64,000 nucleotides of DNA from Nitrospirota bacterium (GTDB taxonomy: Bacteria > Nitrospirota > Thermodesulfovibrionia > Thermodesulfovibrionales > UBA6898), in assembly GCA_021814475.1 (NCBI GenBank), contig JAKAIE010000004.1:3283-67282 (forward strand), given 5' to 3'. A program made the translations under genes and the position numbers. How positions within the stretch are numbered: position 1 is the first letter of the stretch; the number at the start of each line of letters is the position of its first letter. The notes beneath the pieces are model-generated. The model worked only from the letters and a program-made list of their open reading frames with translations. It was not told the DNA's origin and searched no databases. Positions 35,182 to 39,950 of this stretch are shown piece after piece.

Positions 35182-35210
35182 TTGACAAATAGAGAAGTTC
35201 TTGATACTGT
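35182..35210 (+). promoter_or_regulatory. Putative sigma70 promoter for the HU gene
   Basis: TTGACA (35182..35187), 17 nt spacer, TACTGT (35205..35210). Confidence 0.5.
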
Positions 35211-35255: not shown

Positions 35256-35531
35256 ATGACGAAGATGGAACTCATTGACAAGATTGCTGCGGGTGCCGGC
35301 CTCAGCAAGGCCGATGCGGGAAGGTCTCTTGATGCGACGCTGGATTCGATCAAGGCTGCCTTGAAGAAAGGGCAGAAGGTTACGATAGTCGGGTTCGGAA
35401 CTTTTGCGGTGACGAAGAGAAAGGCCAGAAAAGGGCGCAATCCGAGAACCGGGCAGGTAATCAGCATCCCGGCTGCCAAGACACCCAAGTTTACTGCCGG
35501 AAAGACGCTGAAAGACGCCGTAAAAAAATAA
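35256..35531 (+). CDS. hup: HU-family DNA-binding protein
   Basis: [11 protein letters not shown]...[44 protein letters not shown]. Confidence 0.93.
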
Positions 35532-37558: not shown

Positions 37559-37843
37559 CTATTTCCTGAACAGGTCCTCAAAGGCCTTTCTCGCCGCATC
37601 CGTCCCGGCAGAGGGAGGTTGAGGACCTCCTTCGCTGAAGGAATAGTAATCGCAGAAATTTGCCCGATCCCGGGTGCGCTGGAATTCGGCCTTTGGTTCG
37701 AGGCACTTGTTGTGGGCCTTCTCCGAGTAGAACCTGCAGTTCAGGCAGATATGCAGGTCCGCCCCGCATGCGGGGCAGACCGCTTTCCTCGAAAAAAATG
37801 TATCAACCTCGATCTCTTTTTTGCACAGGGCGCAGCTCTTCAC
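37559..37843 (-). CDS. Cys-rich zinc-ribbon protein (94 aa)
   Basis: CALC-x15-CPAC-x6-CLNC plus NKC and FCDY. Coding-like composition. No family name recognised. Confidence 0.55.
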   Translation of the reverse strand: MKSCALCKKEIEVDTFFSRKAVCPACGADLHICLNCRFYSEKAHNKCLEPKAEFQRTRDRANFCDYYSFSEGGPQPPSAGTDAARKAFEDLFRK

Positions 37844-37924: not shown

Positions 37925-37953
37925 TTGACAGGTCCGGGTGATTCTGATATTGT
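37925..37953 (+). promoter_or_regulatory. Putative sigma70 promoter of the 27-codon micro-gene
   Basis: TTGACA (37925..37930), 17 nt spacer, TATTGT (37948..37953). Confidence 0.55.
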
Positions 37954-37984
37954 GAAAACATAAATCCTGATAAGGAGGAGCGCG

Positions 37985-38068
37985 ATGGCCTGCAAATCAA
38001 AGGGCGGCACGTGCGGCACTGCAAAGAAGACCGCGGCGAAACCCGCCAAAAAGACAGCGAAGAAGTAA
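37985..38068 (+). CDS. Small basic peptide, 27 aa (MACKSKGGTCGTAKKTAAKPAKKTAKK)
   Basis: Not in the ORF track (below the size cut-off). AAGGAGG (37972..37978) lies 6 nt before the ATG. It has its own promoter upstream and terminator downstream. 9 Lys and 2 Cys in 27 residues. Confidence 0.55.
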   Translation: MACKSKGGTCGTAKKTAAKPAKKTAKK

Positions 38069-38094
38069 GCCGGCTTTACTTTCTGCCGTAAAAA

Positions 38095-38118
38095 GGATGG
38101 GGTCTCCCATCCTTTTTT
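38095..38118 (+). terminator. Intrinsic terminator after the micro-gene
   Basis: GGATGGG-gtct-CCCATCC followed by TTTTTT, 26 nt after the stop. Confidence 0.8.
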
Positions 38119-38162
38119 GTGCCGCCAATCTTTCCTGCGCCATGCGACAATAAAGGTAATCC

Positions 38163-39302
38163 ATGTTTGATTTTGATAATGAACTCTCCGCGCTGAAAAA
38201 AAAGGGTCTTCTCCGGCATCTCCTCTGGAGATCGTCTGCCCAGGGACCGCTTGTCACGATCAACGGGAGAAGGTACGTCAATTTCGGCTCGAACGATTAT
38301 CTCGGGCTGGCGGCCCATCCCCTGGTGGCGGGGGCCGCAAGGGATGCCGCGCTGAGGTTCGGTTTCGGGGCTGGGGCTTCAAGACTTCTTGCGGGCGGGA
38401 CGGCGCTTCATGAGAGACTCGAAAGGTCGGTTGCCCGCCTGAAGGGTACGGAGGCCGCCCTTGTCTTCAACTCCGGCTATGCCGCCAATACCGGCATCAT
38501 TCCCGCGATCGCAGGGGAGGGCGATGCGCTCTTCAGCGATGAACTGAACCATGCTAGTATCGTCGACGGCTGCCGGCTGAGCCGGGCGCGCCGTCATATC
38601 TACCGGCACCGCGATGTTTCGGACCTTGAGGGTCTGCTCGGTAAAGAAAAGCGGGCGCGCAGAAGGATCGTGCTCACCGATTCGGTCTTCAGCATGGACG
38701 GGGACATTGCGCCTCTGCCGGGGCTCTGCGAAGTCTGCACGAGGCACGGGGCGATGCTTTATATCGACGATGCCCACGCCACCGGCGTGCTCGGGGGAGG
38801 GAGGGGCAGCCTGGCGCATTTCGGCATAAGGGCGGAGCCGTGGATGGTCCAGATGGGGACTTTTTCGAAGGCACTGGGGTCTTTCGGGGCCTTTGTCGCG
38901 GGCAGCAGGGAAATGATCGACTGGCTGGTCAATACCGCACGGACTTTTGTCTTTTCGACGGCGCTGCCCGCGCCGGTCATCGCCGCGTCGTTAAAGGCGA
39001 TGGCGGTTATGCGCAGGGACGCTTCCCGGCTTAAGAGGCTTCAGGAAAACAGATCCAGTCTTGCAGCCGCTCTTCAGGCCAGGGGATGGAACATCCGCAG
39101 CAGCGAGACCCCGATCCTGCCGGTCCTTACCAGGACGGTGGAAGAGGCGACGTCGCTGTCCCAACTTCTCTTCAGCAGGGGCGTCTATGCGCCGGCGATC
39201 AGGCCCCCGACGGTGACGGCGCCCAGAATTCGGTTGACGGTCACGGCCGCGCATACGGCCGCGCAGATTGAAAGGCTTCTGCGGATTCTCGATGCTTATT
39301 GA
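38163..39302 (+). CDS. bioF: 8-amino-7-oxononanoate synthase
   Basis: NDYLGLAAHP, DDAHATGVLG, and TFSKALGSFGAFVAG (PLP lysine). Confidence 0.9.
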   Translation: MFDFDNELSALKKKGLLRHLLWRSSAQGPLVTINGRRYVNFGSNDYLGLAAHPLVAGAARDAALRFGFGAGASRLLAGGTALHERLERSVARLKGTEAALVFNSGYAANTGIIPAIAGEGDALFSDELNHASIVDGCRLSRARRHIYRHRDVSDLEGLLGKEKRARRRIVLTDSVFSMDGDIAPLPGLCEVCTRHGAMLYIDDAHATGVLGGGRGSLAHFGIRAEPWMVQMGTFSKALGSFGAFVAGSREMIDWLVNTARTFVFSTALPAPVIAASLKAMAVMRRDASRLKRLQENRSSLAAALQARGWNIRSSETPILPVLTRTVEEATSLSQLLFSRGVYAPAIRPPTVTAPRIRLTVTAAHTAAQIERLLRILDAY

Positions 39303-39317: not shown

Positions 39318-39950
39318 TCAGTTCCTGGGGATGATGTAGAGACAGGAGGCGGCTCCGTCGGCGACCGTGTGTTCCCGGGTCACTTTTTTGCCGAGAAGTT
39401 CACGGTAGAGCTGGAGCTCGTGCGCGCAGGCCTCCGGAAATTCGGTCGCAATCCTGCTGATCGGGCAATGATACTGTTTGAGTTGATAGGAGGTATCGTT
39501 TCTGTTCAGTTCCACCAGATTTCCCCGCCGCTCCAGGTATTGCTTCAGGCCCGTCACGGTGTCGTCAATGCCGGTTTTTCCGGCCAGCGCCTCGCGGTAC
39601 TCTTTCAGAAGCCGCTCTTTTCTCCAACTGAATATCCTGTCGATCTTCTCGGGACCTTCGTAGTTTTTTATGTCCCTCAGCAGGTTCAGTGCAAAGTCGT
39701 CATAATCGTTCCTGAACAGATTGTTGGCGTTGTCGGTCAGCTTATAGATAAACCCGGGTCTGCCGATGCCCTGTCTTCTCGAAGTGTACGTCACCAGCCC
39801 CTTTTTTTCGAGCGACAGCAGGTGCTGCCTGACCCCCATCGGGGTGATACTGATCTCGCGGCTCAGCTCGTCGATCGACATGCCACCGCTTTTTTTAAGG
39901 TGGTGGATGATGTTTTTTCTTGTGGAGGTTTCCTCGGCCATAAAATCCAT
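39318..39950 (-). CDS. Winged-helix (ArsR/DeoR-like) transcriptional regulator with C-terminal sensor-like domain
   Basis: RKNIIHHLKKSGGMSIDELSREISITPMGVRQHLLSLEKKGLV is a wHTH. The C-terminal roughly 120 aa includes a C-P...C...C set. Confidence 0.7.
   Translation of the reverse strand: MDFMAEETSTRKNIIHHLKKSGGMSIDELSREISITPMGVRQHLLSLEKKGLVTYTSRRQGIGRPGFIYKLTDNANNLFRNDYDDFALNLLRDIKNYEGPEKIDRIFSWRKERLLKEYREALAGKTGIDDTVTGLKQYLERRGNLVELNRNDTSYQLKQYHCPISRIATEFPEACAHELQLYRELLGKKVTREHTVADGAASCLYIIPRN

Follow-up and report, generated by a model that had tools for sequence, protein, structure and literature searches.

Lysine-rich repeat tails and other very small basic proteins of bacteria

Tails resembling histone H1, rich in lysine, alanine and proline, occur in several bacterial proteins, among them mycobacterial HupB/Hlp, which carries PAKKA/AKKA repeats, HBHA, AlgP of Pseudomonas and DdbA of Streptomyces (PMC3643593, PMC10665949). 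The peptide described here is the 27-aa product of a micro-gene in a 64,000-nucleotide stretch (hereafter, the window) of a Nitrospirota genome of the UBA6898 lineage (GCA_021814475.1, contig JAKAIE010000004.1). It has in common with the H1-like tails a K/A/T/P composition arranged in xxKK tetrads, predicted disorder, a variable number of repeats and the lack of Arg. Unlike those proteins, however, in which the tail accompanies a folded DNA-binding domain, the "tail" here is the whole protein of 23-32 aa, and it is preceded by a conserved two-Cys head that has no counterpart in HupB/Hlp, HBHA, AlgP or DdbA. The sequence-only reading of this DNA had compared the C-terminus of the peptide with H1-like or nucleoid-protein repeats. 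The tandem (A/P/T)(A/P/T)KK repeats support this comparison as a likeness of composition, but not as homology, since searches with Pfam, NCBIfam and a PDB profile found no relationship to any H1-like, Hc1/Hc2, HU-tail or nucleoid family. By analogy, the described systems that the peptide would work most like are these bacterial Lys/Ala repeat tails, its own DNA binding being putative.

A second group for comparison is formed by the smallest ribosomal proteins, such as Thx of Thermus, bS22 and bL37 (Actinobacteria, Bacteroidota and others), bL34 and bL36. Like these, the peptide falls within or close to the 24-40 aa range and has a very high positive charge. Like Thx, bS22 and bL37, it is encoded by a stand-alone gene (here with strong expression predicted from its signals), of a type that gene callers and annotators have tended to overlook. 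On the other hand, the peptide is basic through Lys only instead of being Arg-rich, is variable in length, matches no family model and has no counterpart in one sister family within the order, and it has two Cys where bL36 has a full Cys3His zinc site.

The Cys pair invites a third comparison. In the Rad50 zinc hook and in the CD4/Lck zinc clasp, each partner gives two Cys to a shared metal. The micro-protein likewise offers two thiols per chain, so that a tetrahedral site would need two chains, which would explain why exactly two Cys are invariant. This comparison serves as a lead only: the Rad50 and CD4/Lck motifs are CxxC or CxC in folded proteins, whereas the micro-protein has C-x5/6-C in a disordered 27-mer, and its metal binding is putative.

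Organization of the locus

The segment from 37925 to 38118 of the window is an autonomous, monocistronic and strongly signalled gene (Table 1). A promoter, a Shine-Dalgarno (SD) sequence, a 27-codon ORF and an intrinsic terminator had been claimed for it from the letters of the DNA, and each of these was confirmed to the base when the window was re-read; the claims of nine Lys and a C-x6-C motif in the 27-aa peptide are also correct. In a promoter scan, the micro-gene promoter scores 10/12 and carries the TG extension. The terminator hairpin has 12 bp when the flanking A5/U5 pairs are counted, with a folding energy of -19.7 kcal/mol (z = -4.4 vs shuffles). A simple consensus terminator scan missed it, because pairing of the A5/U5 flanks lengthens the stem and leaves too few unpaired T residues. 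Terminators flanked by A-tracts in this way, which are possibly bidirectional, may be systematically under-reported by such a scan.

Table 1. Features of the micro-gene and its surroundings, in window coordinates
Feature	Position	Strand	Remarks
Near-consensus promoter upstream of HU	about 35182-35210	+	TTGACA-N14-TGNTANNNT match; HU at 35256-35531
94-aa Cys-rich ORF	37559-37843	-	zinc-ribbon-like; CxxC-x15-CxxC-x6-CxxC
-35 hexamer TTGACA	37925-37930	+	perfect consensus
Extended -10 TGaTATTGT	37945-37953	+	TG 37945-37946, TATTGT 37948-37953; 17-nt spacer from TTGACA
Shine-Dalgarno AAGGAGG	37972-37978	+	6 nt to ATG
Micro-gene, 27 codons + TAA	37985-38068	+	ATG 37985, TAA 38066-38068; product MACKSKGGTCGTAKKTAAKPAKKTAKK
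Intrinsic terminator A5-GGATGGG/gtct/CCCATCC-T6	38090-38118	+	fold and T-run; GGATGGG 38095-38101, CCCATCC 38106-38112, T6 38113-38118; hairpin arms begin 26 nt beyond stop codon
bioF	38163-39302	+	TIGR00858 equivalog, 443 bits vs cut-off 426
Winged-helix regulator, SufR-like	39318-39950	-	convergent with bioF; TIGR02702 114 bits, below 179-bit cut-off

Conservation of the reading frame

Homologous loci provided 44 distinct ORF sequences, which encode 38 distinct peptides of 23-31 aa (a further member of 32 aa, L084, came from later loci). An ATG start and an open frame are present in all 44, and every difference in length amounts to whole codons. Pooled over these sequences, synonymous change is saturated (pS 0.75) against a pN of 0.15, for an overall pN/pS of 0.20, and the entropy at the first, second and third codon positions is 0.59, 0.23 and 1.24, respectively. 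The effect is specific to the frame, as the 12 anchored codons of the head have a pN/pS of 0.09 in frame +1, in contrast to 1.40 in frame +2 and 10.4 in frame +3. The sequence-only reading had suggested setting conservation of the frame in relatives against third-position change, and by this comparison the frame is kept while synonymous sites are saturated. The micro-ORF is almost certainly a real coding gene.

Two accounts that would make the peptide incidental bear on the same data, and together they are extremely unlikely. According to the first, which had been offered from the outset as an alternative, the locus specifies a non-coding sRNA of ~160 nt that happens to contain an ORF. Such an RNA would account for the gene having its own promoter and terminator, and the transcript does fold somewhat better than shuffles (z -2.2). 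However, third positions are saturated while the peptide is conserved, which leaves no RNA-level constraint inside the ORF, and neither the 5' UTR nor the stretch between the stop codon and the hairpin is conserved between genera. No Rfam family came near its threshold: in Rfam 15 nothing reached the gathering threshold, and the best match (STnc390, 20.2 bits vs 50) covers the terminator hairpin only. As nothing apart from the peptide is constrained in the nucleotide sequence and Rfam gave no match, the sRNA alternative finds no support. According to the second account, an open frame on the opposite strand is the true gene. In each of the 44 ORF sequences, one antisense frame contains no stop codon, and its pN/pS in the head is 0.23 (the three antisense frames give 1.9, 0.23 and 6.4). 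This frame, however, has its wobble positions in common with the sense frame, and it owes its lack of stops solely to the absence of Tyr, His and Gln from the peptide. An antisense gene was rejected, as the frame has no conserved start and no SD, and its length from stop to stop ranges from 27 to 190 codons. We conclude that the sense ORF, not the antisense frame, specifies the product under selection.

Conservation of the control signals

The signals around the ORF were counted in 52 distinct homologous units with full flanks. A perfect TTGACA, the exact 17-nt spacing and a TGnTAnnnT box are found together in 45 of the 52, and the remaining seven, all from family f6, have extended -10 boxes of the G/ATGATATAT type with AT-rich DNA upstream. 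A GGAGG-type SD lies no more than 20 nt from the start in every unit (52/52). A hairpin followed by a T-run begins 17-32 nt past the stop in at least 39 of the 52; the others, mostly from family f6, have longer hairpins that were seen by eye. The terminator stems differ from one another by compensatory changes, for example GGATGAC/GTCATCC, GACGGCT/AGCCGTC and GGGATTGC/GCAATCCC. The case against chance follows from this recurrence of the whole unit (promoter, SD, frame and terminator) in 52 distinct versions among relatives. These comparisons show that selection has preserved the control signals (promoter, SD and terminator) along with the reading frame and the two Cys.

The promoter pattern itself, TTGACA-N14-TGNTANNNT, occurs at 19 sites in the 3.15-Mb genome, where a uniform base composition would give ~1.5. 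The sites include those upstream of HU (Table 1), of rpsL (on contig C128), of an ATP-synthase-b-like ORF and of a pilin-like ORF. To judge from its signals, the data suggest that the micro-gene is strongly, and probably constitutively, expressed.

Distribution and absence from annotation

By six-frame search, the micro-gene is present in 24 of 25 genomes of the same family (f1), a count that includes two weak matches that proved to be true divergent members at the same locus; the sole genome without it is 82% complete. A profile search of 401 genomes of the phylum detected it in families f2, f6 and f12 of the Thermodesulfovibrionales and found no member outside this order; in all, the micro-gene occurs in four further families of the order. 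Within the order, the micro-gene was not found in the 21 genomes of the sister family f10 (Thermodesulfovibrio-type) even at E = 5. Two pattern scans of ~185,000 species genomes yielded 45 true members, every one of them in a Nitrospirota MAG, under labels such as Thermodesulfovibrionales, Candidatus Sulfobium, UBA6898 and similar. Other matches fell away on inspection. Those in Phycisphaerae and Pirellulaceae were rejected as they have the MACK.KG head alone, without the two-Cys/Lys-tail peptide, and those in Bacteroidota, Spirochaetia and Treponema were rejected as 44-nt matches out of frame. A match in Gemmatimonadota, where the locus ends after MACKTKGS, is at best a doubtful candidate.

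All carriers are uncultured genomes or enrichments of sulfate-reducing Nitrospirota, Ca. Sulfobium among them (PMC5812927), and the habitats of the carrier family include rice paddies, groundwater and sediments. One MAG, WY3.bin121, has the micro-gene on two contigs (L042 and L061), with identical peptides and with different flanks and third positions, which could reflect either a real duplication or two strains binned together.

The family is nearly invisible to protein databases. Two members scanned against Pfam and NCBIfam gave no match up to E = 10, and a 20-sequence profile matched nothing in the PDB, not even among the chains of ribosome structures. Seven member peptides were all missing from a collection of 15 billion predicted proteins, which, together with the frame-specific purifying selection, bears out the earlier proposal of a genuine small protein missed by annotation. 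When a 39-member profile was run against 1.84 billion representative proteins, five matches of 37-168 aa were returned (P0001-P0005). All five are gene-caller artefacts, in which the micro-ORF has been extended to an upstream in-frame start, through the SD and the promoter; no longer protein carrying the two-Cys/Lys-tail module was found among these representatives. A full-text literature search found no paper containing the peptide motifs. Since the peptide is absent from the protein collection, published proteome searches that used annotated proteins probably omitted it; bottom-up data would miss it even with its sequence in the database, as trypsin would reduce it to di- to pentapeptides. 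The family is thus a real, undescribed and unannotated micro-protein family, found only in Nitrospirota of the Thermodesulfovibrionales type.

Genomic context

In family f1, the usual order is a divergent zinc-ribbon ORF, the micro-gene and bioF, and either neighbour may be missing. The zinc-ribbon ORF of the window (94 aa) has sub-threshold matches only, to DZR, Zn_ribbon_8, LysW-like and RpoP-like models. Its homologs are 56-79% identical and patchy in distribution: several genomes of the same family are without it, and in families f2 and f12 it occurs in single genomes. A pairing of the micro-gene with this ORF was considered and rejected, as the ORF is absent from several carriers of the micro-gene (G007, G011, G015, G023 and the f6 genomes). 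The converse case, in which the ORF is present and the micro-gene absent, is found in G025.

On the other side, bioF begins 44 nt past the micro-gene terminator (gap 38119-38162), with a weak SD and with no promoter listed by the scan, and it stands alone in the window, with no other bio genes adjacent. This arrangement, together with the fact that bioF is the next gene downstream in most f1 genomes, could be read to mean that the micro-ORF is a leader peptide or attenuator that controls bioF by read-through of the terminator. Such a role is very improbable and is largely refuted by context. The micro-gene occurs without a downstream bioF in several f1 genomes (L003, L009, L017 and L018) and in all other families, and where bioF does follow, the spacing ranges from ~80 to ~600 nt. 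Selection acts on the amino-acid sequence (head pN/pS 0.09), not on the mere presence of particular codons, and the minimum-free-energy fold consists of the terminator hairpin only, with no antiterminator pairing.

Beyond family f1, the neighbours in f2, f6 and f12 are unrelated or convergent, and include genes for a transporter, LeuRS, acetyl-CoA synthetase, NifS and ThyX/ArgF. The promoter, the SD and the terminator travel with the ORF into these unrelated contexts. These observations show that the micro-gene moves between genomic contexts as a self-contained unit, and, given that its neighbours are unrelated in the other families, both a role as leader of bioF and a partnership with the zinc-ribbon gene next to it fall away.

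The winged-helix gene beyond bioF (Table 1) is syntenic with it across the family. It resembles SufR, the regulator of Fe-S cluster biosynthesis. As a separate observation, bioF in this genus may depend on read-through from the promoter of the micro-gene.

Anatomy of the peptide

The family consensus has two parts: (i) a head, M-A-C-K-S-K-G-(G)-x-C-G-T-[A/T]-K-K; and (ii) a tail of two to four [A/T/P/S]2-3-K-K units. No member seen departs from M1, C3, K6, C10, K14 or K15, and A2 and K4 change in three or four members only. Two of these are the most divergent members, which begin MACKSKSSKCKTAKK and MSCRPKGAPCKTSKK and still have both Cys. The two Cys are spaced by five or six residues, and nearly all members have two Cys only and no His; a few (L015, L020 and L084) have a third Cys beside C10. 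From residue 13 to the end, the pattern is xKK-xxxK-xxKK-xxKK, in which K19 is nearly invariant and the terminal KK is kept. Units are gained and lost between genera, as in AKKAPAKKAPAKKKK, so that the members vary from 23 to 32 aa by xxKK units. Of the pooled residues, K accounts for 35%, A for 18%, T for 16%, G for 9%, C for 8%, and P and S for 5% each. Across the 38 distinct peptides, Asp, Glu, Arg, His and hydrophobic residues, both aromatic and aliphatic, are practically absent; one Arg occurs in one divergent member. AlphaFold modeling with a 39-sequence alignment gave a pLDDT of 57 and no secondary structure, and so predicts that the peptide is disordered.

This composition bears on two proposals that involve membranes or secretion. 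The suggestion in the sequence-only reading that the peptide might be membrane-active is unlikely to be right, as the 38 peptides have essentially no hydrophobic residue. It is also very unlikely that the gene encodes a secreted cationic antimicrobial peptide or a RiPP precursor. While the product is short, cationic and Cys-containing, as such peptides may be, it has neither a signal peptide nor a leader/core architecture, and it lacks a hydrophobic or amphipathic face. In none of the families does the gene have a conserved neighbour for modification, export or immunity, and its single-copy, near-universal occurrence in family f1 differs from the patchy distribution of bacteriocin loci.

The conservation of the Cys pair could be taken to mean that the thiols are central, the peptide being a small carrier or buffer of metal, persulfide or redox equivalents in anaerobic sulfate reducers, with the Lys tail used for solubility or docking only. 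C3 and C10 are indeed the most strictly conserved side chains, surviving in the most divergent members; the carriers are sulfate reducers of the Nitrospirota; and in family f1 genes that are Cys-rich or related to Fe-S clusters (the zinc-ribbon ORF and the SufR-like regulator) are often found around the micro-gene. However, two Cys with no His, Asp or Glu do not make a self-sufficient metal site. The peptide does not have the features of zinc-ribbon, rubredoxin-type or metallothionein proteins, namely at least four Cys/His in one chain and CxxC knuckles. Outside family f1 there is no conserved linkage to a sulfur, metal or Fe-S gene, and the zinc-ribbon gene itself is absent from many genomes with the micro-gene. 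In addition, the tail is also under selection (K14 and K15 invariant, K19 nearly so, terminal KK kept). A thiol carrier of this kind is therefore improbable.

Proposed function

The favored reading, to which we assign a rough probability of 0.45, is that the peptide is disordered and abundant and serves as a nucleic-acid-binding polycation, its Cys pair being used for a metal or a disulfide. Because Ala occupies position 2, the start Met is probably removed, which would leave a chain with nine Lys and no acidic or hydrophobic residue. The C-terminal [A/T/P][A/T/P]KK repeats would form a flexible polycation, similar to a segment of histone H1 or of an HU tail, and the polyanion bound by it would most likely be chromosomal DNA, otherwise RNA. 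In the invariant head, A-C-K-x-K-G-(x)-x-C-G-T-x-K-K, the two thiols would hold a metal ion or form a disulfide. Given that a tetrahedral metal site needs more ligands than two Cys, a second copy of the peptide or a partner protein would supply the others. Pairing of this type would give a DNA binder with one arm the ability to bridge, or it would tether the tail to the partner. Several points count against this reading: the likeness to H1-like and HU tails is one of composition, the Cys spacing varies (x5 or x6), and the strong conservation of the head suggests a specific partner, which non-specific DNA binding would not explain.

The same positive charge would suit a lineage-specific tiny ribosomal or ribosome-associated protein, comparable to Thx, bS22 or bL37, with its basic tail threading between rRNA helices. 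A length of 23-32 aa and a strong positive charge fit such a protein, as do the stand-alone gene with near-consensus signals and a promoter class shared with rpsL in this genome; moreover, in the literature on bS22 and bL37, annotation had repeatedly passed over very small polybasic ribosomal proteins before cryo-EM revealed them. However, the basic residues of the peptide are almost exclusively Lys, whereas the known tiny ribosomal proteins are Arg-rich. No ribosomal family of NCBIfam or Pfam was matched at E = 10, nor was any PDB chain. The absence of the micro-gene from the 21 genomes of family f10 means that its product does not belong to the conserved ribosome of the order. Finally, the tail gains or loses repeat units from one genus to another, a behaviour that is unusual in a peptide held within rRNA and typical of tails selected for composition, such as those of H1. 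This drift in repeat number fits a flexible binder of polyanions better than a peptide embedded in rRNA. A ribosomal role is unlikely on this evidence, and the nucleic-acid-binding polycation is preferred.

A bolder form of the polycation reading, which we regard as doubtful, is that the peptide acts as a gene-encoded polyamine with a switch. In such a scheme, it would be an abundant component of chromatin or ribosomes specific to Thermodesulfovibrionales, its invariant Cys pair would link two copies, or the peptide and a partner, through a shared metal ion or a disulfide, and the bridging or compaction of nucleic acid that it causes would respond to metal or redox state. Because a peptide of 26-27 residues can be made chemically, the idea that a minimal H1-like tail with a two-thiol head organizes nucleic acids is directly testable. 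Should the peptide prove to belong to the ribosome or the nucleoid, the inventory of parts of these uncultured organisms would change.

Few genes of this environmentally widespread family of sulfate-reducing Nitrospirota are as well signalled and as consistently kept as the micro-gene, and standard gene callers did not call it. It is a clean and statistically solid addition to the growing evidence that conserved micro-proteins are hidden in bacterial genomes. Separately, the TTGACA-N14-TGNTANNNT sites appear to constitute a small promoter class, probably of high expression, that could be used to find other missed genes.
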